32,479 nucleotides of DNA. Source: Actinomycetota bacterium. Its GTDB lineage: Bacteria > Actinomycetota > UBA4738. Position numbers and translations under genes: made by a program. The notes beneath the pieces are model-generated. The model was given only the letters and a program-made list of their open reading frames with translations. It had not been told where the DNA came from and searched no databases. Every line of letters begins with the position of its first letter. Position 1 is the stretch's first letter. Shown one piece after another: positions 11,856 to 27,456 of the stretch. Location of the stretch: NCBI GenBank assembly GCA_035623615.1, contig DASPTB010000132.1:1-32479 (forward strand), read 5' to 3'.

Positions 11856-12808
11856 GCCGGCCGCTGCTGATCGATGTGCACGTCCACGTCATGCCCTCGC
11901 CGGAGGACCCGATCCGCGACGGCTACGAGATCTGGGAGTACGGGGCGCGGGGCGCCGACGTGGTCTTCTGCGACGATCGCGGGACCCTCGAGGACGCGCT
12001 GGCGGCGATGGACGCCGCGGGGTTCTCGCGCGTGGTCGCAGCGAACATGTTCGCTGCGGACGTCGTGCGCGACGAGGCGATCGCCGAGCTCCCCGTCGAC
12101 CTGCCGGGGCCGGAGCGGGATCGGCGGATCGCCGAGATCGAGGCGTCGATGCCGGACCGGCTTCGCGACTTCAACCGTTGGATCTGCGACGTCGCCCGCG
12201 ACCATCCGTCGATCACGCCGTTCGTCGCCGCCGATCCCCACATCCTCGGCGGCGAGGCAGGTGCCGCACACCTGCGCGAGATGGCGGAGGACCACGGCGC
12301 GCGAGGCATCAAGATCCATCCCATCGTCCAGCGCTTCTTCCCATCCGAACCGAAAATGGCGCCCGTGTTCCGCGTCTGCGAAGACCTCGGCCTGACGGTG
12401 CTCTCCCACTCCGGCTTGGCCCGGGGCGACGACCAGTGGGCCGAGCCGAACGCGTTCGCTTCTCTGCTGCAGACGTTCCCGCGTCTCATTCTGCTGATGG
12501 CGCACCTCGGCGGCGGGAGCTGGACGCAGACGCGCGCGTTCGCGCAAGCCTTCCCCACCGCGACCTTCGACCTGTGCGAGATCATCGAGTGGACGGGCGC
12601 CGCGAACGCGCCCACCGACGACGAACTCGGGCAGCTGATCGCCGCCATCGGGCCCGAGCGCGTGATGATGGGAAGCGACTACCCGTGGTACGACCTGAGC
12701 CACACGGTCGAGCGCGTGCAGTCGATCCCGGGACTGTCGGACGAGCAGCGCGAGGGGATCCTCGGAACGAACGCCGGGCGCCTCCTCGAACTGCCTCCGG
12801 GATGGTGA
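11852..12808 (+). CDS. Metal-dependent TIM-barrel amidohydrolase (amidohydrolase_2-like)
   Basis: GTG start overlaps the upstream stop (GTGA, 11852-11855). LIDVHVHV at the N-terminus, GIKIHP, SHSG and MGSDYPW. Confidence 0.75.
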   Translation: MSRPLLIDVHVHVMPSPEDPIRDGYEIWEYGARGADVVFCDDRGTLEDALAAMDAAGFSRVVAANMFAADVVRDEAIAELPVDLPGPERDRRIAEIEASMPDRLRDFNRWICDVARDHPSITPFVAADPHILGGEAGAAHLREMAEDHGARGIKIHPIVQRFFPSEPKMAPVFRVCEDLGLTVLSHSGLARGDDQWAEPNAFASLLQTFPRLILLMAHLGGGSWTQTRAFAQAFPTATFDLCEIIEWTGAANAPTDDELGQLIAAIGPERVMMGSDYPWYDLSHTVERVQSIPGLSDEQREGILGTNAGRLLELPPGW

Positions 12809-12817
12809 AGCGCCGCC

Positions 12818-13813
12818 ATGACTGACCCGGGCGCGGCGCCGCCGCTGCTGATCGTGACGAGCGACGAAGACGACGTGCCTGTGGGCCTGACGAAGGATGT
12901 GCCCCCGATCCCGTTCACGATGGCGTGGGACGCAGCCGGTGTCGGCGACGCACTGCCGGACACGGAGATCGTCTTCCTGTGGACGATGCGCTCGCCGGCG
13001 TTCGACGCGCTCCGGGACATGTGGTCCTCCGCCGGGGGGCTGCGATGGGTTCACTCGTGCTCCGCGGGGGTCGAGCGGCTGCTGTTCCCGCAGCTGGTCG
13101 AGAGCGACGTCGTGCTGACGAACTCCCGCGGGGTGTACGACCTGCCCATGGCCGAGTACGCGATCGCGCTGATGCTGGCCGCGGCGAAGGGACTTCCCGA
13201 GACGCTTGCGCGCCAACGCGACCACGACTGGCGGTTCCGGTACACCGAGACCCTCGCGGGCAAGCAGCTCGTGGTGGTCGGACCCGGGTCGATCGGCCGC
13301 ACGGTCGCGCGGGCCGCCGCCGGCCTCGGGATGCGCGTGTCGGCGGTCGGGCGGTCGGCACGGACGGACGACGCCGACTTCGACGCCGTCGCCGGGGGAG
13401 ACGGACTGGACGCTGCGCTCGCAGGGGCCGATTACGTCGTCGTCACGGCGCCCCTCACCGACGAGACTCGCGGGATGATCGGCCGGAGCGCGATCGCCGC
13501 GATGCGGCCGACCGCGCGGCTGATCAACCTGGCCCGGGGCGCCGTCGTCGACCAGGACGCCCTCGTGGACGCGCTGCGCGGCGGCAGGGTCGCGGGGGCA
13601 GGGCTCGACGTCTTCGCCGAGGAACCCCTCGACCCCTCGAGCCCGCTGTGGGACATGCCCAACGTGATCGTGTCCCCCCACATCTCCGGCGACACCGACA
13701 CCTCCGAGCGCGACGTCGTGGATCTGTTCCTCGACAACCTCCGCCGTTGGCTCGCCGGCGAGCCGCTGCGCAACGTGGTGGACAAGCGGCTCGGCTTCGT
13801 CACGGGCCAGTAG
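12818..13813 (+). CDS. D-isomer-specific 2-hydroxyacid dehydrogenase (NAD-binding)
   Basis: 331 aa. VVGPGSIGRTVA, LINLARG, GAGLDVFAEEPL and SPHISG. Confidence 0.85.
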   Translation: MTDPGAAPPLLIVTSDEDDVPVGLTKDVPPIPFTMAWDAAGVGDALPDTEIVFLWTMRSPAFDALRDMWSSAGGLRWVHSCSAGVERLLFPQLVESDVVLTNSRGVYDLPMAEYAIALMLAAAKGLPETLARQRDHDWRFRYTETLAGKQLVVVGPGSIGRTVARAAAGLGMRVSAVGRSARTDDADFDAVAGGDGLDAALAGADYVVVTAPLTDETRGMIGRSAIAAMRPTARLINLARGAVVDQDALVDALRGGRVAGAGLDVFAEEPLDPSSPLWDMPNVIVSPHISGDTDTSERDVVDLFLDNLRRWLAGEPLRNVVDKRLGFVTGQ

Positions 13814-13841
13814 TTCCCGCGGTTCCCGGTAGCATGCCGGG

Positions 13842-15041
13842 GTGCCGAAGGATGCCACGGTCGAGCGCGCGAGAGAGGTCCTTCGCGGCGCGCCGTTGAT
13901 CGACGGCCACAACGACCTGCTGTTCCAGCTCCGGGACCGCGTGCGATACGAGCTGTCCGAGCTCGATCCCGGCGAGCCGCAGCCAACGCTCGACACCGAC
14001 GTCCCTCGCCTTCGTGCGGGTGGCGTCGGCGGGCAGTTCTGGTCGGTGTTCGTCCCGTCGGACCTTCCCGGCTCGACGGCGGTCACGGCCACCCTCGAGC
14101 AGATCGACGCGCTCCGGGTCCTCGTGAACGCGCACCCCGACGCGTTCGAGCCCGCTCGGACGGCCGACGATGTCGTCAGGATCGCGGCGGCCGGACGCGT
14201 CGCGTCGATGATCGGCGTCGAGGGCGGCCACTCGATCGACTGCTCGCTCGGCGCCCTTCGGGCGCTCGCGGAGCTCGGCGCCGGCTACATGACGCTGACG
14301 CATTTCGACAACACGCCCTGGGCCGACTCCGCGACCGACGATCCGGTGCACGGCGGCCTCACGCGCTTCGGCGAGGAGGTCGTCCGGGAGATGAACCGCG
14401 CAGGGGTGATGGTCGATCTCAGTCACGTCTCCCCCGACACCATGCGGCACGCCATGCGGGTCTCGGAGGTTCCGCCGCTCTTCTCGCATTCGTCTGCCCG
14501 GGCGCTCTGCGACGTCACGCGCAACGTTCCGGACGACGTCCTTCACGACGTCGGACGAGTGGGCGGCGTGGTCATGGTGACGTTCGTTCCCGCGTTCGTC
14601 GCGCCGGAAGGCAAGGAGTCGATGGCGGCCTACCTCGCCGAGCTGGCGCGCCTGCGGATCGAACACGCCGGCGACGCCGACGCGATCACGGCGGGGATGC
14701 GCGCGTTCGAGGAGCACCATCCCGAACCAGAGTCGACGGTGGGCCAGGTGGCCGACCACATCGACCACGTCCGCGACGTCGCCGGTGTGGACTGCATCGG
14801 GGTGGGGAGCGACTTCGACGGGGCGGGCGCGATGCCGCAGGGGCTCGAGGACGTCTCCTGTTACCCCAATCTCTTCGCTGAGCTCCTGGATCGCGGCTAC
14901 TCGGACGAGGAGTGCGCGAAGATCGCCGGCCGGAACGTCCTGCGCCTTATGCGCCGAACCGAGGAGACGGCCGCCCGGCTCCGCTCCGAGCGTCCCCCCT
15001 CGGTCGCCACGATCGAGGCCCTGGACGGCCGGGGCGAATAG
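13842..15041 (+). CDS. Membrane-type dipeptidase, peptidase family M19
   Basis: 399 aa with a GTG start. LIDGHNDL, MTLTHFDNTPWADS, MVDLSHVS, FSHSSA and GVGSDFDG. Confidence 0.85.
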   Translation: MPKDATVERAREVLRGAPLIDGHNDLLFQLRDRVRYELSELDPGEPQPTLDTDVPRLRAGGVGGQFWSVFVPSDLPGSTAVTATLEQIDALRVLVNAHPDAFEPARTADDVVRIAAAGRVASMIGVEGGHSIDCSLGALRALAELGAGYMTLTHFDNTPWADSATDDPVHGGLTRFGEEVVREMNRAGVMVDLSHVSPDTMRHAMRVSEVPPLFSHSSARALCDVTRNVPDDVLHDVGRVGGVVMVTFVPAFVAPEGKESMAAYLAELARLRIEHAGDADAITAGMRAFEEHHPEPESTVGQVADHIDHVRDVAGVDCIGVGSDFDGAGAMPQGLEDVSCYPNLFAELLDRGYSDEECAKIAGRNVLRLMRRTEETAARLRSERPPSVATIEALDGRGE

Positions 15042-15100
15042 GACCGAAATCAACCCCCGATTGCCGCACGCCCGCCCCTCCAAGAAGGGATGATTGGGGC

Positions 15101-15709
15101 GTGCGACGTGCACCGGCCTTGTGGGGGGTTGTTCTCGCCGCGGCGCTGCTCAGCGCCTGCGGCGGTACGGCCCAACCCTCGAGCTCGCCGAGCGTGCCGT
15201 CGAGCCCGACGACGCCTCCGCCGAGCCCGACCACCCCGGCTCCGAGCCCGACCCCGACCCTTCCCACGGGATTCACGTGCGCGAACGCGTCGGGCGGCGC
15301 CTCCCGCGCCTCCGATTGGGGCCCGGCCGGCCCGACGGTCACGGCCGTGCGGGTTGCGGGCCACTCGGGCTTCGACCGGTTCGTGCTGCAGTTCGACGGC
15401 ACGGTGCCCTCCTACACCGTCAAGCGGCAATCGACCCCGACGTTCACACTGGATCCCAAAGGGAGCAAGGTGACGCTGCGGGGGACGCGCGGCGTGCTGA
15501 TCACGGTCAAGCCCGAGAACTGGACCGCGTACACCGGACCGAGCCGCTTCGTGCCACTGCTCGCCGTCATCCGCGAGGCGCGACTGGTGCAGAACTTCGA
15601 GGGAACCATGCAGTGGGGTCTGGGGACTCTCGGGACCCCGTGCCTGCGGGTCACCACATTGAAGGGCCCGGCTCGGCTGGTGGTCGACGTGGCTGCGAAG
15701 CCGTCGTAG
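15101..15709 (+). CDS. Putative lipoprotein with Pro/Thr/Ser-rich linker
   Basis: GTG start about 10 nt after AAGAAGGGA. Signal peptide with lipobox LLSAC, then the low-complexity stretch SPSVPSSPTTPPPSPTTPAPSPTPT and a beta-rich domain. Confidence 0.65.
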   Translation: MRRAPALWGVVLAAALLSACGGTAQPSSSPSVPSSPTTPPPSPTTPAPSPTPTLPTGFTCANASGGASRASDWGPAGPTVTAVRVAGHSGFDRFVLQFDGTVPSYTVKRQSTPTFTLDPKGSKVTLRGTRGVLITVKPENWTAYTGPSRFVPLLAVIREARLVQNFEGTMQWGLGTLGTPCLRVTTLKGPARLVVDVAAKPS

Positions 15710-15764
15710 CTCGTCCACCGAGCGCCTCACGTCGTCACCGCACACCCACCCGCACACGAGAAGA

Positions 15765-15790
15765 GAGAGGGGCGCTGGTGCGCCCCTCTC
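15765..15790. terminator. Intrinsic terminator hairpin between convergent genes
   Basis: Perfect 11-bp stem GAGAGGGGCGC/GCGCCCCTCTC with a 4-nt loop TGGT. T-containing tails on both strands. Confidence 0.7.
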
Positions 15791-15820
15791 GTTCTCCCAA
15801 CCGGGTGCTGGGGGTGGGTA

Positions 15821-16960
15821 CTACCCGGTGGCCTCGATCACGCCGAACAGCCCGTGGCTCTCGTCCCCGGGTCCGGCGGTGAAGAACAGCTGGTTGGCGG
15901 CTCCAGACGGACCGCCGTTGGCAAACTCGATCGCCCACAGACCGGGGATCTTGATGATCCTTCCGCTGCGCCGGCGGAGCTTGCCGGCGTGCTTCCACGA
16001 TCCGCCCGACCACGAGTAGGCGTTGATCACTCCGTTGCCGAAGTTGCCGACCAGGAGGTCGTTGCTGAAGCGCCCAAAGTCGCTGGGAGCCATCGCGAGA
16101 CCCCAGGGCGCGTTCAGGACGCCGCGGCTCGCGACGCGGGCGACGAACATGCCGCTCGTGTCGTACTCGTCGACGAACCCGAGCGTGGCGCCGTCCGCTT
16201 CGTCGCCGGAGCCGGGGACCTGCTTGGCATACGTGACGAACACGTCGTCACCGATCGCCTGGATGCCGAACGGCGCGTAGCCCTTCGGCAGGTTCGGGTC
16301 GGTGAACCGACCGGGCGTCGTGATCTGGGTGAAGTTGCCATCGAAGACGTCCACGGTGCCGTTGTGGAAGTCGGTGGCATACAGGCGGTCGCCGCCCGGC
16401 GTCGACGCGATGGCGAGTCCTTTGAAGATCGCTCCCACGTCCGTCTTGTCGACGACCACGAACGCCTGCGTCGACGGCGCGGGCGGCGGGACGTTCGGGT
16501 TCCAGCCGAGGATCTGGCCGGCCTCGGTGTCGAACAGGAACAGCGACGGTCCCGAGTGCATCCCGTCGGTGACGGCGAAGTCGGAGCCACCATTGAAGAC
16601 GACGCCCGTCGGGTCCTCGGGCACGCTGACGACGAACGAACCTTTCGTCCCGTCGCTCCCGTAGATGGTGGACAGGCTCGTCCCGTTGTCGCCGACCCAC
16701 CAGGGTGTCTCCGGTCCCGCCGCAAGGCCCCACGCGTTCACGAGATCGGTGTCCTGATGCGCGGCCACCCCCGCTTTGTCCGATACGAGCCTCATGAGGC
16801 TGTACCCGGCCATCGCGGGGTGGAGGCCCGCGGGGCGCGCCGTGGACACCGGCCGCGTGTTGGCAGACGCCGGTGAGCCGGAGGCCCCGAACAACGCCGC
16901 CACGGTGGCGAGCGTCACCGCCCCGGCGAGCACGAACGATCTGAGCCGAAACCCAGTCAT
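15821..16960 (-). CDS. Secreted beta-propeller protein, TIGR03118-like
   Basis: ATG directly preceded by GGGAGGG. Sec signal ending ASA. Repeated strands of NAWGLA, ATDFHNGTVDVFD, NAPWGLAMAP and GLWAIEF type. Confidence 0.7.
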   Translation of the reverse strand: MTGFRLRSFVLAGAVTLATVAALFGASGSPASANTRPVSTARPAGLHPAMAGYSLMRLVSDKAGVAAHQDTDLVNAWGLAAGPETPWWVGDNGTSLSTIYGSDGTKGSFVVSVPEDPTGVVFNGGSDFAVTDGMHSGPSLFLFDTEAGQILGWNPNVPPPAPSTQAFVVVDKTDVGAIFKGLAIASTPGGDRLYATDFHNGTVDVFDGNFTQITTPGRFTDPNLPKGYAPFGIQAIGDDVFVTYAKQVPGSGDEADGATLGFVDEYDTSGMFVARVASRGVLNAPWGLAMAPSDFGRFSNDLLVGNFGNGVINAYSWSGGSWKHAGKLRRRSGRIIKIPGLWAIEFANGGPSGAANQLFFTAGPGDESHGLFGVIEATG

Positions 16961-17200
16961 GCACCCTCCCTTCGCCCTGGACCCCAGACCCGGGGTCTGC
17001 CTTCCCCGCGCCCAGCGCGCACTCACGAAGCCGCACTGCGGCCGGTGAGCGCAGGTACTACGGGCGACCCTGGGGAGGGGTTTGGGAAAGGGAGGTGAAC
17101 ACACCGAGTCGGGCGAGCAACTCCCGGACGGATGGCGGGCCCGGTTCTGGGTCGACGCGGAGGGTAGCGACGCGCGCGATCCGCGAGGTCGCCGGCGGGC

Positions 17201-18352
17201 TCAGCCCTGGAGCAGCGGCCTGCCCATGTGCCGGCGGTACTGCTCGTTGAACCAGAACAGGAACCGGTCCTGGCGCGGGTAGACACCCGTCGTGTACGCG
17301 CGAGAGCCGACGCCCGTTTGCGCCCGCGAGCAGACGCCCCAGTCCTGCTTGCTGATCAGGTCCCAGAACTCGACAACCGGCTCCGGCTTGAAGTTCGGGC
17401 TCTCGATCGTCTCCGGCCGGAAGAGATACTCGGACACGACCTGTGTGTGGCCGGGCCCCTTCGGGTAGGCAACGTAGTACATCGCTGCGTCCGGGTGCAG
17501 GTTCAGCATCAGGTTCGGGAACGAGAACATCCCGTAGTACATGCGGTAGTCGTCGGGGTCCAGGTCCGGGAACTTCGGCAGCTCGGACTGCCCGGTCATC
17601 GTGAAGCTCGTAGCGCCCTCGACCATCCCGTTGCCGTCGTCGGGAACCTGCTCGTCCCACACCTCACCGAACCGGTACAAGGGAACGACCTTGACCAGCT
17701 CGGGGTGGATGGTCGGGCAGTGCAGACACTCGTTGAAGTTCTCGACGATGATCTTCCAGTTGGCGGCCACCTCGTAGACGATGCGCACCCCGACCCGCAG
17801 CTCGTCCATCTTGTAGCGGCCGAACGCCGTGATGGTCTCCGCTCCGTCGTTGAGCGCTTCGAGCAACGGCCGGGGCTCGGCCGACATATTGACGAACAGG
17901 AAGCCGGCATAGTCCTCGACGGCGATCCCGTGCAGCGGGAACTGCGACCGCTCGAAGTGCTCGTCCTCCTGCACGTTCGGGGTCCCGATGAGGCAGCCGT
18001 TCAGATCGTACGTCCACGCGTGGTACGGGCACCGGAAAGCCTTGCGTACGTTTCCCATGCCGTCGTCGAGGAACTTCGTTCCCCGGTGGCTGCAGACGTT
18101 GTAGAAGGCGTGGATCTCGCCTTCCTCGTTGCGGGTCAGGAAGATCGACTCGCCCGCCACGTCCTTGACGACGTAATCGCCCCGGTTTGGGATCTCCTCG
18201 GCACGTCCCACGCAGATCCAGTCCCCGAACCAGACGCGTTGGCGCTCGTCCTCGTAGACTTCGTCGCTCACGTAGTCCGTCCCCGACAGCGTCGGCTGCG
18301 GGGTCCAATTGGGCGCGCGGTTGCGCAGGTCGGCGACGTCTTCCTTCTGCAT
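17201..18352 (-). CDS. Rieske [2Fe-2S] non-haem-iron oxygenase, alpha (catalytic) subunit
   Basis: 383 aa from the ATG of MQKEDV. Rieske motif CSHRG...CPYHAW. Mononuclear-iron motif ENFNECLHCPTIHP. Confidence 0.85.
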   Translation of the reverse strand: MQKEDVADLRNRAPNWTPQPTLSGTDYVSDEVYEDERQRVWFGDWICVGRAEEIPNRGDYVVKDVAGESIFLTRNEEGEIHAFYNVCSHRGTKFLDDGMGNVRKAFRCPYHAWTYDLNGCLIGTPNVQEDEHFERSQFPLHGIAVEDYAGFLFVNMSAEPRPLLEALNDGAETITAFGRYKMDELRVGVRIVYEVAANWKIIVENFNECLHCPTIHPELVKVVPLYRFGEVWDEQVPDDGNGMVEGATSFTMTGQSELPKFPDLDPDDYRMYYGMFSFPNLMLNLHPDAAMYYVAYPKGPGHTQVVSEYLFRPETIESPNFKPEPVVEFWDLISKQDWGVCSRAQTGVGSRAYTTGVYPRQDRFLFWFNEQYRRHMGRPLLQG

Positions 18353-18424
18353 GCGAAGCTCACTCTCCTGGGGACGGGGTCGCTTACAAGGATACCAGCG
18401 GGGTCTGGGGCGTAAGCTCCGGCC

Positions 18425-18733
18425 GTGCACCTCGACCCGACCGAGGAAGACCGGCTGCGGGTGTTTGCGGCCGCGGAGCTCGCACGCCGGTCGCTCGCCG
18501 ACGGCCTCGCGCTGAGCGCGCCGGAGGCCGCGGCGTTGGTGGCCGACGAGATGCACCGGGCAGCGCGACGCGGAGGCTCGCTCGACGACGTGATCGACGC
18601 GGGGCGGCGGGCGGTTCCACGCGAGCGCGTGATGGACGGCGTGCCCGCGATCGTCGGCGACGTGAAGGTCGAGGTGCTGCTCGGCGACGGCCGGCGGCTC
18701 GCGGTCGTCCGTCCCTGGGAGGGGACCCCGTGA
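18425..18733 (+). CDS. ureA: Urease gamma-subunit homologue
   Basis: 102 aa with a GTG start. HLDPTEEDRL..FAAAELARR and VMDGVPAIVGDVKVE parallel UreA. Confidence 0.8.
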   Translation: MHLDPTEEDRLRVFAAAELARRSLADGLALSAPEAAALVADEMHRAARRGGSLDDVIDAGRRAVPRERVMDGVPAIVGDVKVEVLLGDGRRLAVVRPWEGTP

Positions 18734-19020
18734 GCAACCCGTCGCCGCCGGGTGCGATCGTGACGGGACAGGGCTCGATCCGCACGGCGGAAGGCCTCAA
18801 GCGCCGGACGCTGACCGTGACCAGCACGTCCGCGCGTCCCATCCGCGTGTCGTCGCACTACCCGTTCTGGCGGGCGAATCGCCGGCTGGAATTCGACCGC
18901 GTCGCGGCGCGAGGGTTCCGGCTCGACATCCCCGCCGGCGACTCGCTGCGCTGGGGGCCGGGTGAGAGCCGCGAGGTGACGCTCGTCGCGCTCGCCGGTT
19001 CGGACCGCGACGATGGCTGA
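18730..19020 (+). CDS. ureB: Urease beta-subunit homologue
   Basis: 96 aa. GTGA overlap with ureA. RPIRVSSHYPF, FDR..A.GFRLDIPAG and REVTLVALAG parallel UreB. Confidence 0.8.
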   Translation: MSNPSPPGAIVTGQGSIRTAEGLKRRTLTVTSTSARPIRVSSHYPFWRANRRLEFDRVAARGFRLDIPAGDSLRWGPGESREVTLVALAGSDRDDG

Positions 19021-20704
19021 GCTCTCTCGCGAGGAGTACGCGGCGCGGTACGGCCCGACGACGGGCGACCGCGTCCGGCTCGCGAACACCGACCTGTGGA
19101 TCCGGGTGCGGGACGACCACGTCGGCTACGGCGACGAACCCCTGTGGGGCTACGCGAAGAACATCCGCTCGCGAATGACGCAGTTCGACCGCGCGACCGC
19201 CGACAGCGAGCTCGACGTCCTGATCGCCGGCGTCGTGTTGATCGACCCTCTGCTCGGGGTCGTGAAGACGAACATCGGCGTGAAGGACGGCCGGGTCGTA
19301 GGGATCGGGCGGGCGGGCAACCCCGACATCACCGCGGGCGTCGACATGACGATCGGGCCGAGCACGCTCCCGATCATGGGATACGGACTCATCGCAACAC
19401 CGGGTGCCGTCGACAGCCACGTCCACCTGATCACGCCGGCGCTCGTGCCGCCGGCTCTGTCCGCGGGCGTCACCACCCTGATCACCGCGGGCTTCGAGGA
19501 GCCGCCACGGCATATGACGCGTCTGTACCAGGCGTTCGAAGCACTGCCGGTGAACCTCGGGCTGCAGTCGAGCGCCCGTTCGGAGGAGGCTCCGGCCACC
19601 GAACGGCTGATCGAGGCCGGCTCGATCGGGCTGAAGATCCACGAGGACTGGGGGGCGTACCCCGAGATCGTCGACGCGACGCTGCGCGTCGCCGATCAGC
19701 ACGACGTGGCCGTCTGCCTGCACACGGACGGGCTCAACGAATCGTGCGAGCTCGACGAGACCGTGTCGGCGATCGCGGGGCGCGCCGTGCACGCGTACCA
19801 CGTCGAGGGAGTGGGCGGGGGCCATGTTCCGGACCTGATCGGGCTCGTTCGGGAACCGAACGTCGTGTGCTCGTCGACGACGCCGACGATCCCGTACGGG
19901 GCCGCGACCGCGGCCGAGCACCTGCAGATGATCCTGCTCGTGCACGGCGGGTCGTTCGACTCGCCCGCCGACGTCGAGGCCGCGCGCGAGCGCATCCACG
20001 AGCGCACGATGGCCGCCGAGGGCCCGCTCCACGAACTCGGCGCGATCGGGATCGTGAACTCCGACTCCCAGGGGATGGGCCGGATCGGCGAGACGGTGCG
20101 CCGGACGTTCCAGCTGGCGGACAGGATGAAGACATGGCGGGCGAGCCCCGCGGCAGCGGCCTGGCAGGAGGATGCCGGGGAGGACGACAACGACCGTGTC
20201 CTACGCTACCTGGCCAAGGTCACTGCCGAGCCGGCGCGCGTCCACGGGATCGAGGACGAGGTGGGGAGCCTGGCACCCGGGCGGCTCGCCGATGTCGTGC
20301 TGTGGCGCTCCACCTCGTTCGGCGTCCGGCCCGAGCTCGTCCTGAAGGCGGGCTACCCGGTCTGGGGAGCGCTCGGCGAAGGCAACGCGAGCGTCGAAGG
20401 CGCCGAGCCGGTGCGCTACCGCCCGCACTGGGGAGCACTCGGCCACGCGGCCGCGTCCCTCGCGACCACCTTCGTTTCACGCGCCGCGGAGGAAGCGGGG
20501 TTCGCGGAGCGGCTCGGCACGCGGCGGCGCGTGGTCGCCGTTCACGGGACGCGCACGGTTCGGCGCGACGCGCTCGTCGCGAACACCGCCACCGCCGACG
20601 TGGAGGTCGATCCCGCGGACGGAACCGTGCGGCTCGACGGGCACATCCTGGCATCCGAGCCGGCGACGGAGCTTCCGCTGAACCGGACCTACCTGCTGGG
20701 TTGA
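19013..20704 (+). CDS. ureC: Urease alpha-subunit homologue (divergent)
   Basis: 563 aa with an 8-nt overlap with ureB. YGPTTGDRVRLANTDLWI, VDSHVH, GLKIHEDWG, CLHTDGLNES, HAYHVEGVGGGHVPD, SSTTPT and NSDSQGMGR. Confidence 0.85.
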   Translation: MAELSREEYAARYGPTTGDRVRLANTDLWIRVRDDHVGYGDEPLWGYAKNIRSRMTQFDRATADSELDVLIAGVVLIDPLLGVVKTNIGVKDGRVVGIGRAGNPDITAGVDMTIGPSTLPIMGYGLIATPGAVDSHVHLITPALVPPALSAGVTTLITAGFEEPPRHMTRLYQAFEALPVNLGLQSSARSEEAPATERLIEAGSIGLKIHEDWGAYPEIVDATLRVADQHDVAVCLHTDGLNESCELDETVSAIAGRAVHAYHVEGVGGGHVPDLIGLVREPNVVCSSTTPTIPYGAATAAEHLQMILLVHGGSFDSPADVEAARERIHERTMAAEGPLHELGAIGIVNSDSQGMGRIGETVRRTFQLADRMKTWRASPAAAAWQEDAGEDDNDRVLRYLAKVTAEPARVHGIEDEVGSLAPGRLADVVLWRSTSFGVRPELVLKAGYPVWGALGEGNASVEGAEPVRYRPHWGALGHAAASLATTFVSRAAEEAGFAERLGTRRRVVAVHGTRTVRRDALVANTATADVEVDPADGTVRLDGHILASEPATELPLNRTYLLG

Positions 20705-20729
20705 ACCACCGACGGAAAGGGGGCGGCGC

Positions 20730-21512
20730 ATGTTCGACCTGAAGGGGAAGGTTGCGGTCGTCACGGGCGGCGGGTCGGGGATCGGCCGCGCGACCGTCCG
20801 CCGGCTCGCGTCCGCGGGCGCTCGCGTGCTCGTCGCCGACCTGACGGACGAGACCGCGCTCGCGACGGAGGTCGACGGCGCCTCTGTCAGGACCGACGTC
20901 ACGAACGAGGACGAGGTCGCCACCGTGATGGCGTCCGCGGCCCGGGTGTACGGGGGACTCGACGTCGTCGTGAGTTGTGCGGGGATCGCCGAGGGGACCG
21001 AACCCGTCGTCGACGAGGACGACGATCTGTACGTGAAGCAGTTCAGGGTGAACACCCTCGGGGTGGTGCACTCGATCAAGCACGGCGCCCGGAACATGGC
21101 GGGGGGTGGGTCGATCGTGAACGTCGCGTCGATCACCGCGACGATGGCGTTGCCGCGCAGCGGCCCCTACGCGGTGTCGAAGTGGGGCGTGGTCGGCGCG
21201 ACGCGGCAGGCGGCGGTCGAGCTCGGCGGCCGAGGTATCCGCGTCAACTGCATCTGCCCGTCGGTCGTCGACACGCCGATGATCCGCGGCGACGACAGCG
21301 CGGCGGTCCGCGGCCTGGTGGCGTTCCAGCGGTCGGTTCCCATTCCCCGGATGCTGCGGCCGGAGGAGATCGCCGGCGTCGTGCACTTCCTCGCGAGCGA
21401 CGAGAGCGGGCTCATCACCGGGCAGGTCATCAACGTCGACGGCGGCTGGAGCGTCGGGCCGTCGATCGAGCACTTCGACTGGCTCGCGGCCGGGCGCCCG
21501 CCGACGCCATAG
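20730..21512 (+). CDS. Short-chain dehydrogenase/reductase (SDR)
   Basis: 260 aa, 25 nt after ureC with AAAGGGGG upstream. VTGGGSGIG and catalytic YAVSK. Confidence 0.85.
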   Translation: MFDLKGKVAVVTGGGSGIGRATVRRLASAGARVLVADLTDETALATEVDGASVRTDVTNEDEVATVMASAARVYGGLDVVVSCAGIAEGTEPVVDEDDDLYVKQFRVNTLGVVHSIKHGARNMAGGGSIVNVASITATMALPRSGPYAVSKWGVVGATRQAAVELGGRGIRVNCICPSVVDTPMIRGDDSAAVRGLVAFQRSVPIPRMLRPEEIAGVVHFLASDESGLITGQVINVDGGWSVGPSIEHFDWLAAGRPPTP

Positions 21513-21521
21513 GTCCCGGGT

Positions 21522-22622
21522 TCAAGCCGAGGCGGAGGACCCTCCGACCCGAACGGCCGCCCGCTCGGGTGACGCTCGCACCTCGTCCGTGAAATGGCAC
21601 GCGACGGCGTGCCCGCGGGCGACGGACGCGAGCGGCGGCGGCTCCGCCTCGCACCGCTCCGGGTTGCCGAGCTTCTGGCGGAGCCAGCACCGCGTGTGGA
21701 ATCGGCAGCCGGGCGGCGGCGCGGCCGGGCTGGGCGGGTCGCCCGTCAGCACGATGTGCGTCCGGCGAGCCTCGATCTCGGGGTCGGGGCGCGGGATGGC
21801 CGACAACAACGCGATCGTGTACGGGTGCAAGGGGTCGTCGTGCAGGACGTCGGTCGGCGCCGACTCGACGACCTGGCCCATGTACAGAACGGCGATGCGA
21901 TCGCTGATGTGGCGCACGACCGCCAGATCGTGTGCGATGAACAGGTACGTCAGGTCGAACTCGCGCTGGAGCCGCTGCAGCAGATTGATGATCTGCGCCT
22001 GGATCGAAACGTCGAGGGCGCTGACGGCTTCGTCGGCGACCACCAGGGACGGGCGCAGCGCCAGCGCGCGGGCCAAGCCCACGCGCTGGCGCTGCCCGCC
22101 GCTCAGCTCGTGCGGGTAGCGCGTGGCCATGCGGGCGGGAAGGCCGACGGTGCCGAGCAGCTCCTCGACGCGGGCGCGCCGCTCGGTCTTCTTTCCCAGC
22201 CGGTGGACTTTGAGCGGCTCGTCGATGCACTTGCCGACGCTCATCCTCGGGTCGAGCGAGCTGTACGGATCCTGGAACACCATCTGCAGGCGGGCAGTCA
22301 CCTGCTTCGCACCGGCGCCCTTCAGTGAGGCGAGATCGGTTCCCTCGAACACCACGCGGCCGGACGTCGGCGCATACAGGCGCACGATGGCCCGTCCGAT
22401 CGTCGTCTTCCCGCTTCCCGACTCGCCGACGAGCCCCACCGTCTCTCCGCGGCGAATGTCGAGCGTCACCCCGTCGACCGCGCGCACCGTTCCGATGGTC
22501 TTTCGGAACACCACCCCCCGCGTGATCGGGAAGTGGACGCGCAGGTCCTGCACCTCGAGGAGCGCGCCGTCGGTCGTCGGAGTGATTCCCCCATCGCCGC
22601 CCCGCTCCCCGGCGTCGCTCAC
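21522..22622 (-). CDS. Oligopeptide/dipeptide-type ABC transporter ATP-binding protein (OppF/DppF-like)
   Basis: Walker A GESGSGKTT, signature LSGGQRQR, Walker B LVVADEAVSALD and the C-terminal oligopeptide-type extension HPYT..CRFHTRC. Confidence 0.88.
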   Translation of the reverse strand: MSDAGERGGDGGITPTTDGALLEVQDLRVHFPITRGVVFRKTIGTVRAVDGVTLDIRRGETVGLVGESGSGKTTIGRAIVRLYAPTSGRVVFEGTDLASLKGAGAKQVTARLQMVFQDPYSSLDPRMSVGKCIDEPLKVHRLGKKTERRARVEELLGTVGLPARMATRYPHELSGGQRQRVGLARALALRPSLVVADEAVSALDVSIQAQIINLLQRLQREFDLTYLFIAHDLAVVRHISDRIAVLYMGQVVESAPTDVLHDDPLHPYTIALLSAIPRPDPEIEARRTHIVLTGDPPSPAAPPPGCRFHTRCWLRQKLGNPERCEAEPPPLASVARGHAVACHFTDEVRASPERAAVRVGGSSASA

Positions 22623-23713
22623 GCGGGCCCCTCCGGCGATGCGGTCGCGGCAGCCGCGGGAGGAGGCGCGGGAACGAACCCGGGCCGCAGCGGCGCCGCC
22701 CCACGCACCTCTTCAGCCGTCACGGGGTTGTGGCACGCAGCCTCGTGCTCGAGGCCGGACCCGTCCGCCGTCCCTTCCCCGATCGGCCGCAGCGGCGGCA
22801 TCTCGGTCCAGCACGACGACACCCGCCACGCGCACCGCGGCGCGAAGGGACAGCCCACGGGCGGCTCCTCCAGGTCGGGCGGCGCGCCCTCGATCGGCCG
22901 GAGCGCCTTCCCGCGGTCGTCGATGGCGGGAACCGAGTTCAGGAGCCCGACCGTGTACGGATGGCGCGGGTTGGCGAACAGCTCCACCGTTGAGGCCGTC
23001 TCCATCACGAAGCCCGCGTACATGACGGCGATGCGCCGGGCGACTCTCGCCATGATCCCGAGGTCGTGGCTGATCAACAGCAGCGCCGTCCCGAGATCGC
23101 GCGTCAGGCCGACGAGCAGCTCGAGCACCTGCGCCTGGATCGTCACGTCGAGCGCCGTCGTCGGCTCGTCGGCGATGAGCAGTCGCGGATGCAACGCCAG
23201 CGCCATCGCGATCATCACCCGCTGCCGCATCCCGCCGCTGAACTGGTGGGGGAAGCGAACGAGCTGGTCCTCCGCGTTCGGGATGCCGACCTGCCGGAGC
23301 AGGTCCGCCGCGCGGGCCCGGGCGTCGGCCTTTCCCACCTGCTCGTGGGCCCGAAGGATCTCGGTCACCTGTTCGCCGATCGTGATGACCGGGTTGAGGC
23401 TCGACATCGGATCCTGGAAGACCATCGAGATGTCCTTGCCGCGCAGCCGGCGCAAGTCGCGCTCGGGGCTGCCGATCAGGTCGGTGCCGTCGAACAGGAT
23501 CTGCCCGGACGCGACGCGGCCTGCCGGCGCCGGGAGAAGGCCCATCACGGCGAGGCTCGTCACGCTCTTGCCCGACCCCGACTCGCCGACGAGACCGACG
23601 GTCTCGCCCGCGCCGACGTCGAGGCTCACGCCGTTCACCGCGTGCACCTCGCCCTGCGGCGTGTCGAAGCGCACGACCAGGTCGCGCACCGACAAGAGCG
23701 CTTCGCCGGTCAC
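22619..23713 (-). CDS. Oligopeptide/dipeptide-type ABC transporter ATP-binding protein (OppD/DppD-like)
   Basis: GTG start overlaps the permease stop (GTGA, 23710-23713). GESGSGKSV, FSGGMRQRV, LLIADEPTTALD and HPYT..CPFAPRC. Confidence 0.88.
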   Translation of the reverse strand: MTGEALLSVRDLVVRFDTPQGEVHAVNGVSLDVGAGETVGLVGESGSGKSVTSLAVMGLLPAPAGRVASGQILFDGTDLIGSPERDLRRLRGKDISMVFQDPMSSLNPVITIGEQVTEILRAHEQVGKADARARAADLLRQVGIPNAEDQLVRFPHQFSGGMRQRVMIAMALALHPRLLIADEPTTALDVTIQAQVLELLVGLTRDLGTALLLISHDLGIMARVARRIAVMYAGFVMETASTVELFANPRHPYTVGLLNSVPAIDDRGKALRPIEGAPPDLEEPPVGCPFAPRCAWRVSSCWTEMPPLRPIGEGTADGSGLEHEAACHNPVTAEEVRGAAPLRPGFVPAPPPAAAATASPEGPA

Positions 23714-24618
23714 ACGCGCCCTCCCCGCAGCACCCCGCGCAGGCGCGGGTCGATCCAGTCGCGCAGCCCGTCGCCCAGCAGGTTGAACCCGAGCACCGTG
23801 AAGGTGAGCGTCAGCCCGGGGAACGTCAGGAACCACCACGCGGTCTGGAGGTAGTCCTGGGCTCCTGCCATCATCGTCCCCCACTCGGGTGTGGGCGGCT
23901 GGGCGCCGAGGCCGAGGAAGCTGAGCGCAGAGATCGACAGGATGGCGTTGCCGGCGTCCGCCGACATCTGGATCGCCACGATCGGCAAGACGTTGCGCAC
24001 CATGTGGCGAACGACGATCCCCCCGGTGCTCGATCCGGAGACGCGGGCGGCGAGCACGAACTCCCGTTCGCGAAGCGTCAGCACCTGGCTTCGCGCCAGA
24101 CGTGCGTACCACGGCCAGTACACGATCGCGACCGCGAGGATCGTGTGCTCGAGGCTCGGTCCGAGCGTCGCCGCGATGGCGGCGGCGAGCACGAACGCGG
24201 GGAACGCGAAGAACAGGTCGGTGAATCGCATGAGCACCTCGTCGACCCAACCGCCGACCATGCCGGCGAGGATTCCGAGCGCGCAGCCGAACGGCGCCGC
24301 GAGCAGGACGATAAGGGCGGCCGACGCGAGCGAGATGCGCGCGCCGGCGACGATGCGCGCGAGGAGGTCGCGACCCACGTTGTCGGTCCCCAGCCAGTGC
24401 GACGCCGACGGTCCCTGCAGGATCGCGCTGAAGTCGGCAGCGTTCGCCTTGTTCCCGAGGAGCAAGGGTCCCACGAGCGCCATGAGAACGACGATCGTCA
24501 CGATGGCGACCGCGAGCGCGTTCAGCCACGAGGCTCGCACGAACGCCCACACGCCGCGCCACCCGGACGCGGCCTTCGGCGGGGCGGCTGCGGCGCTGAC
24601 GACCGCTTCTTCCATCAT
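23710..24618 (-). CDS. ABC transporter permease (DppC/OppC-like)
   Basis: 302 aa, hydrophobic. HWLGTDNVGRDLLARI is a typical N-terminal string. Confidence 0.85.
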   Translation of the reverse strand: MMEEAVVSAAAAPPKAASGWRGVWAFVRASWLNALAVAIVTIVVLMALVGPLLLGNKANAADFSAILQGPSASHWLGTDNVGRDLLARIVAGARISLASAALIVLLAAPFGCALGILAGMVGGWVDEVLMRFTDLFFAFPAFVLAAAIAATLGPSLEHTILAVAIVYWPWYARLARSQVLTLREREFVLAARVSGSSTGGIVVRHMVRNVLPIVAIQMSADAGNAILSISALSFLGLGAQPPTPEWGTMMAGAQDYLQTAWWFLTFPGLTLTFTVLGFNLLGDGLRDWIDPRLRGVLRGGRV

Positions 24619-25622
24619 GCGTACCGGATCCTCGGGTCGAGGTACAGGTAGATGAGGTCGACGACCAGGTTGGTGAGCGTGTAGAGGATCGCGACCAGGA
24701 GCGTGACACCCATGATGGCGTTGTAGTCCGACGCGGCGAACGCGTTGAACGCGTACTGCCCGATGCCGGGGAACGCGAAGATGTACTCGACGACGAAGAC
24801 GCCGCCCGCGAGGACGCCGAACTCAAGGCCGAGGATGGTGACGGCGGGGAGCATGGCGTTGCGCAGGATGTGACGGAGCATCACGCGCCTGCGCGGCAGC
24901 CCCTTCGCCTCGGCCGTGCGCACGTAGTCCTCGCCGGTGACCTCGAGGAGGCTCGCGCGCACGATGCGCGTCATGAGCCCGTAGACGCCGGCCGCAAGCG
25001 CGATGGCGGGCAGCAACAGGTGCTCGAAGGCGCTCACCGAGGTGCCGATGTGCCCGCTGAGCAGACCGTCCACCGTGTACATACCGGTGATGTGCGGCGG
25101 CGGCGCCGCGCCGGCGGCGAGCCGTCCGGTGATCGGCAGCCACCCCAGCTTGACGCCCACGACGTATTGCAACAGCAGGGCCAGCCAGAACGCGGGGATC
25201 GACACGCCCGCGACCGCCGTGAGCTCGACCGTCTGGTCGACGCCCGAGGCGCGGCGCCTCGCGGCCAGCATCGCCGCGAGGATGGCGGGCACGACGCCGA
25301 GGATCAGCGCCAGGACCGTCAGCTCGATCGTCGCGGGGAAATACGTGCGCAGGTCCTGCGTCACAGGGCGTCGGGTCATGAACGAGATCCCGAGGTTCCC
25401 GTGCAACAGGTCGCTCATGTACCGCACGTACTGCTGCGCCAGCGGCTCGTTCAACCCGTAGATCGCGCGGATGTGCGCGAGAGCGGCGGCGCTCGCGCGC
25501 GGGCCGGCGATCAGCCGAGCCGGGTCCCCCGGCACAACCCTGGACAGGAAGAACGTGATGAGGGTGACGCCCCACACGACGAACAAGACGAACACCAAGC
25601 GGCGGAGGACTAGCCTTCCCAT
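24615..25622 (-). CDS. ABC transporter permease (DppB/OppB-like)
   Basis: 335 aa. LRRL..ITFFLSRVVPGDPA at the N-terminus and a conserved C-terminal DPRIR. Confidence 0.85.
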   Translation of the reverse strand: MGRLVLRRLVFVLFVVWGVTLITFFLSRVVPGDPARLIAGPRASAAALAHIRAIYGLNEPLAQQYVRYMSDLLHGNLGISFMTRRPVTQDLRTYFPATIELTVLALILGVVPAILAAMLAARRRASGVDQTVELTAVAGVSIPAFWLALLLQYVVGVKLGWLPITGRLAAGAAPPPHITGMYTVDGLLSGHIGTSVSAFEHLLLPAIALAAGVYGLMTRIVRASLLEVTGEDYVRTAEAKGLPRRRVMLRHILRNAMLPAVTILGLEFGVLAGGVFVVEYIFAFPGIGQYAFNAFAASDYNAIMGVTLLVAILYTLTNLVVDLIYLYLDPRIRYA

Positions 25623-25644
25623 CGCGTCCCCGTGGCCGCCATCT

Positions 25645-25679
25645 CGCGCGCCCGGCGCCGTCCCGTCACCGGGCGCGCG
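25645..25679 (-). promoter_or_regulatory. Intercistronic GC-rich stem-loop directly after the binding-protein stop codon
   Basis: Perfect 11-bp inverted repeat CGCGCGCCCGG (25645-25655) / CCGGGCGCGCG (25669-25679) with a 13-nt loop. Abuts the stop codon at 25680-25682. Confidence 0.55.
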
Positions 25680-27362
25680 TCACTGCACCCGATACAGCGG
25701 GTAGTAGTTGTAGACCCAGCCGGTGAGCGGGTTCGCGATGTAGCCCTTGACATCGGTGCGCAGCACCGTGTTGTCGAGGACCTGGTCGACGGGGACCCAC
25801 GGCGGGTCGGTCTGGTTGATGATGGTCTGGAGCTGGGTCATCATCGACTGCAGCTTCGTCGGGTCGAACTCCGTGTAGCCCTTGTTGATGATGTCGGTCA
25901 CCGTGGAGTTGATGTAGTACCCGCTGTTGAACGCGGCGTCTTTCGGCAGCGCGGCCGAGTTGAGGATCGGCCAGCAGTAGTCGGCCGCGAGGTCGTAGTC
26001 CGGATACCACGACCAGAAGTACATGTCGGCCCGCTGGTTCACGGGTCGCGGCGTCGTCAGGTCGGCGAGGAACGCAGAGTATGCCTTCTCCAGGAGCTTC
26101 AGCTTCATGCCTGCCTGCTCGAACTGCGCCTGCAGCACCGCGCCGGCCTGGTCGCCGTACCCGGTGTAGAACTCGTAGGTGAACTCGGTTCCCGGCGCAA
26201 CTCCGGCTTGCGCGAACAGCTGCTTGGCCTTGTCCACGTCGGTCGGGAACACGTACGAGTCGGGGTCGTGGTTCGCGAGAAGGTCGGGGAAGCACCCGTG
26301 CGCCGGCGCGACGGTGTTCAGCATGACGGACTTCACGTACGCGTCGTGGGGGAACAGGTAGTTCACCGCCTGCCGGGCCTCGGGCTTCTGCAGCGGCCCG
26401 TACTCCCCGAGGATGATGTACTCGAGGTACATGGCCTTCGCAGTGGACGTGAAGAAGCGAGGGTCGGCCTTGAGCGCCTGGACATCGTGCGCGCTGCTCG
26501 AGGGCGTGATCATGTCGACGGCGCCGGACTCGAGCGCCTCGCGCCGCGCCGAACCGTCCGGGATCTGCTGGATGATGACCTTCTTGAACTGCCCCTTCTT
26601 CCACCCGCCCCAGTAATGCGGGTTCTGGACCAGGACGGCCTGGCTTCCCGGATCGAAGCTCTCGAGCATGTAGGCGCCGGTTCCGGCGGCGTGCGACTGC
26701 AGCCACTGATGGCCCTGGTCCTTCGGACCCGTCGAGTGCTGCTTCGGCACCTCCGGCGAGATGACGCCGGTGCCCCAGATCGCGGCGGCCGCGTTCTGGA
26801 ACGGCGGGCTCGGTGCGCCGAGGTCGAACTTCAGCGTCCCCGGATCGACCACGACGATCTGCTTCTGCGGGTCGGTGACCCACGTTCCCAGGACGCTCCC
26901 GGCCCCGACGCCGAGCGTGATCGTGCGGATGTACGCGGACTTGATCGCGTCGGCCGTGACCGGCGTCCCGTCCCAGAACGTCACGCCCTTGCGAAGGTTG
27001 AACGTCCACACGCTCTTGTCGGAGTTCGACGACCACGACTCGGCCAGGGCGGGCTGGAACTGGTCGACCGTGCCGAGCTTCGTGCGGATCAGCCCTTCGT
27101 ACATCGAGAAGTCGATGATGGCCGGGCCGTTGACGAAGTAGCTGGCCGGGTCGAAGTCGGGCGACCAGGAAACGGTCGCGACGATCAAGGTCTCGGGGTC
27201 GCGGCTCAGCTTGGGCGGTGACGCGGTGCCCGTCTGCCCGGAGGTCGACGAGCTCCCGCCGCATGCCGCCAGCAGGTTGCCGCCGACGCCGAGCGCCGCC
27301 CCCGTGATCGCCGACCGCCGGAGAAACTCACGGCGAGTGAACGGCGTCGGCTCCTTCCCCAC
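25680..27362 (-). CDS. ABC transporter substrate-binding lipoprotein, family 5 (peptide/nickel/opine type), Tat signal
   Basis: GTG at 27362, 9 nt after GGGGGAGG (an alternative GTG lies at 27401). Twin-arginine motif TRREFLRR followed by lipobox LLAAC. Length and composition fit family-5 SBPs. Confidence 0.8.
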   Translation of the reverse strand: MGKEPTPFTRREFLRRSAITGAALGVGGNLLAACGGSSSTSGQTGTASPPKLSRDPETLIVATVSWSPDFDPASYFVNGPAIIDFSMYEGLIRTKLGTVDQFQPALAESWSSNSDKSVWTFNLRKGVTFWDGTPVTADAIKSAYIRTITLGVGAGSVLGTWVTDPQKQIVVVDPGTLKFDLGAPSPPFQNAAAAIWGTGVISPEVPKQHSTGPKDQGHQWLQSHAAGTGAYMLESFDPGSQAVLVQNPHYWGGWKKGQFKKVIIQQIPDGSARREALESGAVDMITPSSSAHDVQALKADPRFFTSTAKAMYLEYIILGEYGPLQKPEARQAVNYLFPHDAYVKSVMLNTVAPAHGCFPDLLANHDPDSYVFPTDVDKAKQLFAQAGVAPGTEFTYEFYTGYGDQAGAVLQAQFEQAGMKLKLLEKAYSAFLADLTTPRPVNQRADMYFWSWYPDYDLAADYCWPILNSAALPKDAAFNSGYYINSTVTDIINKGYTEFDPTKLQSMMTQLQTIINQTDPPWVPVDQVLDNTVLRTDVKGYIANPLTGWVYNYYPLYRVQ

Positions 27363-27456
27363 GGTGAACCACCTCCCCCTCTCGTCCTCGATGAGCGACA
27401 CTGGAACCTGACCTGATGGTTGTCAAGCCGGTTCGCCATCTCCCAACCAATGACTC

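Follow-up and report, generated by a model that had tools for sequence, protein, structure and literature searches.

A clade of urease-like proteins in Actinomycetota with a remodelled active-site pocket and no linked accessory genes

Urease is the textbook one-substrate enzyme, and it has an obligatory nickel-chaperone system. In Bacillus subtilis, ureABC alone suffices for some active urease, and the UreA2B2 enzyme of Helicobacter mustelae is accessory-independent; both have the canonical active-site loop and flap, and both are true ureases. Among more distant relatives, the carboxylated-lysine amidohydrolases cleave cyclic or substituted ureido and amide bonds, and their metal centre self-assembles without chaperones. 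In the agmatine deiminase pathway, the enzymes known for the step after the deiminase are AguB, putrescine transcarbamylase and AguY (PMC12283126). AguY, a non-homologous N-carbamoylputrescine amidohydrolase, was discovered through the juxtaposition of its gene with aguA, in a paper that does not mention urease homologues (PMC12283126). Here we describe three ureABC-like genes on a 32,479-nucleotide stretch of DNA from an Actinomycetota bacterium (GenBank assembly GCA_035623615.1, contig DASPTB010000132.1, positions 1 to 32,479), the whole of which is called the window below. Their products belong to a conserved family that is never linked to urease accessory genes and that has a telling operon partner, an agmatine-deiminase-like gene, while the short-chain dehydrogenase/reductase (SDR) and Rieske oxygenase genes on either side of ureABC in the window are incidental. 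The role suggested by sequence is most probably that of a ureido/urea amidohydrolase serving guanidino-nitrogen catabolism.

The ureABC-like genes and their clade

The three cistrons lie in high-GC DNA (about 0.70) and encode a urease-fold gamma/beta/alpha complex (Table 1). An earlier first-pass annotation of this DNA had called them tightly coupled urease homologues, and its coordinates and both gene overlaps check out; the Pfam families agree. In the open reading frame listing and on direct reading, the ureA stop and the ureB GTG start share GTGA, and the overlap of ureB with ureC is 8 nt long (ATGGCTGA). The Amidohydro_1 match of the ureC-like protein (1e-39) spans residues 127-439. Its closest solved structure, by phmmer against PDB sequences, is Klebsiella aerogenes UreC (1e-147), and the H. 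mustelae entry 3QGA is also among the matches (464 bits).

All three products nevertheless score below the NCBIfam equivalog cut-offs for urease subunits: the ureA-like protein reaches 81 bits against NF009712 (cut-off 123), the ureB-like protein 91.1 bits against NF009682 (cut-off 129) and the ureC-like protein 582.7 bits against TIGR01792 (cut-off 680). TIGR01792 scores were 583-613 for clade proteins (the window protein and two further members tested), 576 for a Streptomyces variant (L036) and 813-962 for three canonical controls. Only the subfamily model NF009686 is passed by the ureC-like protein (672.8 bits, cut-off 354). Because the clade proteins lie below the equivalog cut-offs but above this permissive subfamily model, annotation pipelines still label them "urease subunit alpha".

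Close relatives of the window protein are numerous. The top 120 matches among 5.8 billion proteins were 72-100% identical to it, nearly all with the motifs AGFEEP and VHGGS. A scan of one genome per species returned 27 loci at 64-75% identity, followed by a sharp fall to 49% or less, the level of canonical ureases, and a metagenome scan supplied about 57 further clade loci. Our clade set comprised 90 loci, the window included, and was compared with a set of 76 canonical loci. The carriers are almost all metagenome-assembled genomes of uncultured soil Actinomycetota, with one cultured strain, Pseudonocardia acaciae DSM 45401. In a neighbour-joining tree the clade is monophyletic and its sister is L036; UreC identity is 62-100% within the clade (mean 71%) but averages 46%, with a maximum of 52%, between the clade and canonical ureases. 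The phylogeny against canonical UreC thus sets these proteins apart. A full-text literature search found no description of the clade.

Between the window and the 83%-identical locus L081, dN/dS is 0.32 for ureA, 0.21 for ureB and 0.17 for ureC, and all three subunit genes are under purifying selection. The same deletion and the same altered flap, described below, occur in all 90 clade loci, which together with these dN/dS values (0.17-0.32) is far beyond chance. We also considered whether the unusual segment is simply normal for actinobacterial UreC and rejected this idea, since in Mycolicibacterium, Gordonia, Nocardia, Micromonospora and Actinospica both loop and flap are of the canonical form and ureG is present. 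The first-pass annotation had suspected that this was not a housekeeping urease but a urease-derived enzyme with a remodelled pocket. Its suspicion is borne out by the distinct conserved clade, the scores below cut-off and the lack of accessory-gene linkage at any of the 90 loci, and the canonical loop and flap in those five actinobacterial genera show that the remodelled segment is not ordinary actinobacterial UreC.

Active-site pocket and accessory genes

Active sites were compared through a phmmer alignment to K. aerogenes UreC (KAU) and a MAFFT alignment of 82 sequences. The metal ligands are kept, with KAU H134, H136, K217, H246, H272 and D360 corresponding to window H136, H138, K208, H237, H263 and D351, and so are the catalytic residues H219, D221, H320 and R336 (window H210, D212, H311 and R327). 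Neither the six ligands nor the catalytic His, Asp and His vary among 47 clade proteins or at any of the loci examined, and Arg336 is conserved except in one subclade. Every one of the ligands that had been recognised in the alpha chain at first reading is therefore aligned and conserved. The pattern HxH...K...H...H...D on an Amidohydro_1 TIM-barrel is that of the binuclear carboxylated-lysine subtype of amidohydrolases.

Judged from the alignments, the pocket wall around these residues is rebuilt: the loop that carries the Ala167 carbonyl is swapped for an invariant F-E-E-P turn, and CHHL in the mobile flap becomes VHGG. In the window alpha chain an 11-residue gap covers KAU G158-C170, including Ala167, which is Ala170 in the numbering of Sporosarcina pasteurii. 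When the canonical loci L028-L080 and L142-L165 were read over alignment columns KAU 156-176, the canonical loop itself proved to have two lengths, GGGTGPAxGTxATTxTPG and the 3-residue-shorter GG[GS]LGP[VI]TVGI, both of which occur with ureG. The shorter form is seen in many ureG-bearing ureases, including those of Mycolicibacterium, Pseudomonas and cyanobacteria, and that class also has Gly at KAU 363. The clade deletion therefore amounts to 11 residues against the longer canonical form and 8 against the shorter. The first-pass annotation had described a shortened segment without the textbook GGGTGP/ATT.TPG signature; the deletion stands, at 11 residues, but the signature is one of two canonical forms and not universal. 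The change A363G (in NSDSQGMGR) was considered as a diagnostic feature and discarded, as it is common in ureG-bearing canonical ureases.

TAGF-EEPP replaces the loop in all 90 clade loci, whereas the canonical loop is present in all canonical loci examined. Within the clade AGFEEP is invariant, including the pair E162-E163, and the two residues after EEPP vary by subclade (YV, AA, WR, RH and others). In the flap, KAU MVCHHLD corresponds to LLVHGGS in the window, so that Cys319, His321 and Leu322 are replaced. The loss of the Cys and of the second His, reported at first reading as MVCHHL becoming MILLVHGG, is thus confirmed, with the refinement that the catalytic His320 (window His311), the general acid of the flap, is still present. 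The flap reads VH[GE]G in 90 of 90 clade loci (VHEG in one subclade) and CHH or CHN in canonical loci. Roles of the urease flap Cys and His have been described (PMC6077230). Positions fixed differently in the clade and in canonical ureases include G156T, G157A, deletion of G160 and P161, G173P, M180T, C319V and S335E on the pocket loop and flap, together with G47Y and K522R elsewhere.

Accessory genes were sought by tblastn with UreG, UreD, UreF and UreE queries from Mycolicibacterium, Proteus and Pseudomonas loci (10 queries, three phyla), over 10 kb on each side of the loci. None of the 10 queries found a UreD, UreE, UreF or UreG homologue in the whole 32-kb window, and a UreG-type P-loop was also lacking there, in agreement with the first-pass annotation. 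Across the clade the same queries found UreG, UreD, UreF and UreE at 0, 0, 0 and 0 of 90 loci, compared with 60, 59, 54 and 30 of the 76 canonical loci. An independent search with a UreG P-loop pattern gave no true matches in 28 clade loci and matches in 45 of 53 canonical loci. No substitute metallochaperone recurred among the clade neighbour genes. We hold with high confidence that this is a distinct clade without linkage to accessory genes.

Agmatine-deiminase-like partner and gene neighbourhood

The most telling neighbour of the clade is a gene of the PAD_porph (agmatine-deiminase-like) family. It occurs in 31 of 90 clade loci; among the 40 loci that have 1.2 kb or more of flanking sequence on each side, 17 have it. 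None of the 76 canonical loci does. Adjacent PAD genes are always co-directional with ureABC and occur in three independent arrangements: PAD-ureA-B-C with a spacer of 4-5 nt, ureAB-PAD-ureC with overlapping ends, and ureABC-PAD with a spacer of 0-3 nt. When the 131 non-redundant genes lying up to 6 kb from the PAD modules were sorted by Pfam family, the commonest family accounted for 4 of them, and CN-hydrolase, amidase and transcarbamylase were not recurrent. As no family recurs around the modules, PAD plus ureABC looks like a unit that is complete in itself.

The PAD-like proteins are about 40% identical to the crystallised agmatine deiminases of Enterococcus faecalis, Streptococcus mutans, Arabidopsis and Medicago. 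The residues that contact agmatine are known for AIH of Medicago truncatula, in which Asp220 binds the terminal amine (PMC6447857). Among 28 complete PAD-like sequences, Asp94, Asp218, His224, Asp226 and Cys366 are kept in all, Asp89 in 27 and Asp220 in 24. With the agmatine-binding residues kept, these enzymes should yield an N-alkylurea, for example N-carbamoylputrescine. Second in frequency among the clade neighbours is an Amidohydro_3 gene (21 loci), which also follows ureC in the sister L036, and some clade loci have APC-type permeases or a polyamine-type ABC transporter.

Table 1. Features of the window
Feature	Position	Strand	Family match and remarks
Arginase-family (agmatinase-like) gene	4-624	+	two such genes in one 12-kb stretch
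CoA-acylating methylmalonate-semialdehyde dehydrogenase	668-2158	+	613 bits, cut-off 448.5
3-hydroxyisobutyrate-dehydrogenase-like gene	2685-3851	+	adjoins methylmalonate-semialdehyde dehydrogenase gene
DUF1989 protein	4905-5948	-	N-terminal extension of ~150 residues; best NCBIfam matches UAAP2/UAAP1 (urea-amidolyase-associated) and trimethylamine N-oxide demethylase, all under cut-off
Agmatinase-like arginase-family gene	10857-11855	+	Pfam Arginase, 5e-65; TIGR01230 146 vs cut-off 174
Open reading frame without any family match	15050-15757	-	adjoins TIGR03118-family gene
Secreted TIGR03118-family protein	15821-17104	-	338 bits; signal peptide, no Pfam domain
Rieske oxygenase alpha subunit (GbcA-like)	17201-18355	-	divergent; Pfam Rieske and Ring_hydroxyl_A; GbcA 194 bits vs cut-off 670
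ureA-like (urease gamma homologue)	18425-18733	+	102 aa, GTG start; Pfam Urease_gamma PF00547, 1.2e-24
ureB-like (urease beta homologue)	18730-19020	+	96 aa, GTG start; Pfam Urease_beta PF00699, 2.6e-28
ureC-like (urease alpha homologue)	19013-20704	+	563 aa; Pfam Urease_alpha PF00449 and Amidohydro_1 PF01979
Codons His136-Val-His138, two dinuclear-site ligands (KAU His134/His136)	19418-19426	+	K. aerogenes UreC alignment
Remodelled pocket segment T158-A-G-F-E-E-P-P-R-H167	19484-19513	+	alignment to canonical UreC
Codon Lys208, metal-site ligand (KAU K217, carbamylated in urease)	19634-19636	+	K. aerogenes UreC alignment
Altered mobile flap M306-I-L-L-V-H-G-G-S314 (canonical M-x-M-V-C-H-H-L)	19928-19954	+	alignment
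Classical SDR gene	20730-21512	+	25 nt after ureC stop; Pfam adh_short_C2, 8e-61
Opp/Dpp/Nik-type ABC transporter	21522-27401	-	convergent; two ATPases, two permeases, binding protein 25680-27401; Pfam

The immediate flanks of the window genes tell a different story from the clade at large. The SDR gene is probably co-transcribed with ureC, and the first-pass annotation had seen significance in its position in the slot of the accessory genes. That position carries no meaning, as the gene is missing in L081 and the P0003 contig, both 83%-identical relatives, and throughout the rest of the clade, in which weak SDR matches occur elsewhere in just 10 of 90 loci. L081 is colinear with the window except that it lacks 12795-18410 (2-hydroxyacid dehydrogenase, M19 dipeptidase, two more genes and the Rieske gene), 20707-21537 (the SDR gene) and 27340-29245 (an amine oxidase). 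The Rieske gene is shared by the window and the 92%-identical L166 only; neither L081 nor any other clade member has it. Both genes are recent lineage-specific insertions, and we rejected them as functional partners because they are missing from L081, from the P0003 contig and from the wider clade. The TIGR03118-family gene lies within the 5.6-kb insertion between ureABC and the upstream operon.

In L081 and the P0003 contig, ureABC ends a plus-strand string composed of genes for a 263-aa protein of no known family, a zinc-dependent alcohol dehydrogenase (ADH), the agmatinase-like enzyme and an Amidohydro_2 protein, in one of the two also with a 2-hydroxyacid dehydrogenase. The protein of about 263 aa, which has no Pfam or NCBIfam match, heads the string of ADH, agmatinase-like, Amidohydro_2 and ureABC genes at 8913-9716 (+) in the window, at 5485-6276 in L081 and at 1999-2790 in the P0003 contig. 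Many genes of L081 (ENA ERZ25039520 contig_55779) are fragmented despite its nucleotide colinearity with the window, among them LLM, DUF1989, SDR, E1 and ADH genes; these splits look like frameshift errors of long-read assembly rather than pseudogenes.

Other genes of the window island encode luciferase-like oxidoreductases, E1/E2 dehydrogenase components, an M19 dipeptidase and an amine oxidase, and the island as a whole looks like one for catabolism of a guanidino or amino compound. The methylmalonate-semialdehyde dehydrogenase and 3-hydroxyisobutyrate-dehydrogenase-like pair could feed a C3/C4 skeleton (beta-alanine or 3-aminoisobutyrate from a guanidino acid) into central metabolism. DUF1989 proteins, which we take to be carboxyguanidine deiminase subunits, would fit the guanidino-nitrogen theme. 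The two best NCBIfam matches of the substrate-binding protein of the ABC transporter are NikA nickel-binding models, far under cut-off (120 vs 393), and the importer could bring in nickel, a metallophore or an organic substrate. The transporter is conserved in L081 and L168 and absent from the 80%-identical L167. An Rfam scan that included the guanidine riboswitches gave no match at the gathering threshold in the window or in five clade loci, and the regions upstream of ureA and of the PAD gene gave nothing at E values up to 1.

One subclade, marked by EEPPWR and VHEGN (L018-L024, L027 and L121-L123), differs from the others in that Arg336 is replaced by Leu, the flap reads VHEGN and no PAD gene is present. 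Its loci are flanked by a divergent chromate-transporter gene on one side and by PD40 beta-propeller and dodecin genes on the other, and this may reflect a further functional shift or merely vertical synteny. In L119, L124 and L125 of the VHEGN group a Peptidase_S51 gene (cyanophycinase/dipeptidase E family) is convergent to ureC; Asp-Arg released from cyanophycin would offer a further source of guanidino nitrogen.

Proposed function and comparison with known systems

We propose that the complex is a urease-derived ureido/urea amidohydrolase that would finish nitrogen release from guanidino compounds, with a metal centre assembled without dedicated UreDEFG; the chances that this is correct seem to us evenly balanced. 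Its parts differ in strength. That the complex is a catalytically active hydrolase is very probable, and that it acts downstream of guanidino-group enzymes is somewhat favoured by the gene context. An N-substituted urea rather than urea as the physiological substrate is a tentative suggestion, to which we give a little less than an even chance. Because the carbamyl-Lys-bridged dinuclear site and His210, Asp212, His311 and Arg327 are kept, the enzyme should hydrolyse a carbamoyl C-N bond, and it would do so by urease chemistry: a metal-bridging hydroxide would attack the metal-bound carbonyl, NH3 would leave and the remaining carbamate would decarboxylate. The bond would be that of a ureido product, R-NH-CO-NH2, which an enzyme encoded nearby would make by modifying a guanidino group. 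N-carbamoylputrescine, or another cationic N-alkylurea like it, is the best candidate and would come from the agmatine-deiminase-like partner; urea itself may be accepted too. Upstream in the window lineage the partner is instead an agmatinase-like ureohydrolase, whose product would be urea. A urease fold without its pocket wall and with an invariant Glu-Glu pair would be a chemically sensible candidate for handling a cationic N-substituted urea, and the subclade variation after EEPP would be the pattern expected from divergent recognition of the substituent. The metal centre may be loaded by self-assembly, for which the chaperone-free assembly of other carboxylated-lysine amidohydrolases offers a model.

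The fullest version of this proposal is more speculative, and we advance it only as a possibility. Soil Actinomycetota may have recruited the urease scaffold as a chaperone-independent N-alkylurea (N-carbamoylputrescine-type) amidohydrolase, which together with the PAD-like enzyme would form a portable two-enzyme module that strips both terminal guanidino nitrogens, and the copy in the window would derive from such a module and have moved into a catabolic island that contains an agmatinase. If true, the enzyme would be the first member of the urease family whose physiological substrate is not urea, and the agmatine deiminase pathway would have a fourth, non-homologous route for its final step. 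A ureido substrate, N-carbamoylputrescine or another, would mean a new enzyme for polyamine and guanidino-nitrogen catabolism. It would also correct the label "urease subunit alpha" on well over a hundred sequence clusters (at least 120 best matches, 27 species-level genomes), and ureC counts from soil metagenomes would need re-reading, since the genes of this clade would not report ureolysis. More generally, a lineage that keeps the catalytic core without the pocket wall and the linked chaperones would test what sets the extreme substrate specificity of urease and what makes UreDFG necessary.

Several observations weigh against the proposed function. The PAD-like proteins fall under the AguA equivalog cut-off (297 vs 382), roughly one in two well-flanked clade loci is without a PAD gene, and the neighbourhoods are mixed (Amidohydro_3, amidase, permeases, chromate transporter). 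A PAD gene is absent from the window, where the nearest guanidino enzyme is the agmatinase-like one, whose product, plain urea, fits ordinary urease activity. The ureDEFG genes may sit elsewhere in the clade genomes, beyond the 10 kb on each side, and the shortened loop could help metal to enter without chaperones rather than make room for a larger substrate. An AlphaFold2 model built from a 47-sequence clade alignment was of low confidence (mean pLDDT, the predicted local distance difference test, 64.9; flap below 50) and was not used for pocket geometry.

The leading alternative is a genuine urease (EC 3.5.1.5), though one from an unusual lineage. Such an enzyme would hydrolyse urea released by the agmatinase/arginase-family neighbours, or by the PAD-like enzyme acting on free guanidine, and would be matured by distant ureDEFG or without chaperones, the loop and flap changes concerning metal loading or regulation. 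In its favour, all the ligands and catalytic residues are retained, the subfamily model NF009686 is passed, a weakly NikA-like ABC transporter adjoins the genes, and B. subtilis and H. mustelae set precedents for active urease without accessory genes; in the window lineage an agmatinase-like gene lies upstream, with two arginase-family genes in the island, and for the window copy the substrate may be urea, a ureido intermediate or both. That context leaves urea as a possible substrate, and we therefore keep a true but odd urease in consideration, although we think it unlikely. Every member has lost the loop whose Ala167 carbonyl contacts bound urea, and in every member the Cys-His-His/Asn of the flap, otherwise universal, is altered; the pocket residues differ by subclade. 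Moreover, the PAD-like partners keep the residues that hold the agmatine tail, so that their product should be an N-alkylurea and not urea, none of the 90 loci is linked to ureDEFG, and the clade lies under all urease equivalog cut-offs. Less probable again is that the substrate is some other small nitrogen-rich compound, such as biuret, guanidine, guanylurea or a carbamate, or else an amide that a neighbouring Amidohydro_3, amidase or Rieske enzyme provides; the Glu-Glu pair would then bind a cationic group. The E162-E163 pair is indeed invariant, the window island has a DUF1989 gene, and the neighbourhoods are mixed and rich in amidohydrolases (Amidohydro_3 in 21 loci and beside L036, and also amidase, phosphotriesterase and Amidohydro_2). 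However, none of the other neighbours matches the PAD gene in frequency or in tightness of coupling, the Rfam scan gave neither a guanidine riboswitch nor any other element ahead of the operons, and nothing points directly to any specific compound. Finally, a decaying or non-catalytic paralogue with, for example, a structural or moonlighting role might be expected to lack accessory genes and to lose conserved pocket elements, as is seen here. This explanation is very improbable, as purifying selection acts on all three subunits and none of the six ligands or of the catalytic His, Asp and His varies among proteins that are 62-100% identical, with Arg336 lost from a single subclade. In addition, all 90 loci have intact, translationally coupled reading frames.

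Compared with the canonical nickel ureases of K. aerogenes (1EJW/2KAU) and Sporosarcina pasteurii (4UBP), the window complex has the same subunit gene order, a homologous fold, the same ligands including the carbamylated Lys and the same four catalytic residues. It differs in being only about 46% identical, in a loop that is 11 (or 8) residues shorter and lacks Ala167, in the VHGG flap, in the lack of linkage to ureDEFG and in its scores below cut-off. The accessory-independent ureases (H. mustelae iron urease UreA2B2, 3QGA, and B. subtilis ureABC) resemble it in having structural genes without adjacent ureDEFG, and they hint that a urease-fold site can be metallated without chaperones. The window protein is, however, no closer to 3QGA than to other ureases.

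The proposed role, removal of a carbamoyl group after agmatine deiminase, is shared with AguB (a CN-hydrolase), AguY (of the amidase signature family) and putrescine transcarbamylase. The juxtaposition with an aguA homologue is shared with AguY; in the clade such a homologue, with agmatine-binding residues, is present in 31 of 90 loci, and the window has an agmatinase-like gene instead. The folds are unrelated, and the urease-like clade would be a further non-homologous solution. With dihydroorotase, hydantoinase/dihydropyrimidinase and phosphotriesterase the clade shares the metal site of the superfamily, but these binuclear carboxylated-lysine amidohydrolases are single-chain enzymes, are remote homologues (E >1e-7) and have no gamma or beta subunits.

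A second, different urease-like variant is L036 (Streptomyces sp. NPDC042319, 9426-13390). Like the clade, of which it is the sister branch in the neighbour-joining tree, it has no ureG within 10 kb, a TIGR01792 score of 576 bits and an altered flap (TVHRGHH). Unlike the clade, it has the loop GMGIGGVWDVG, which is 4 residues shorter, is about 50% identical to clade members and consists of two genes, gamma and beta being fused. An Amidohydro_3 gene begins 16 nt after its ureC. Accessory-less, pocket-remodelled relatives of urease may thus have arisen more than once.

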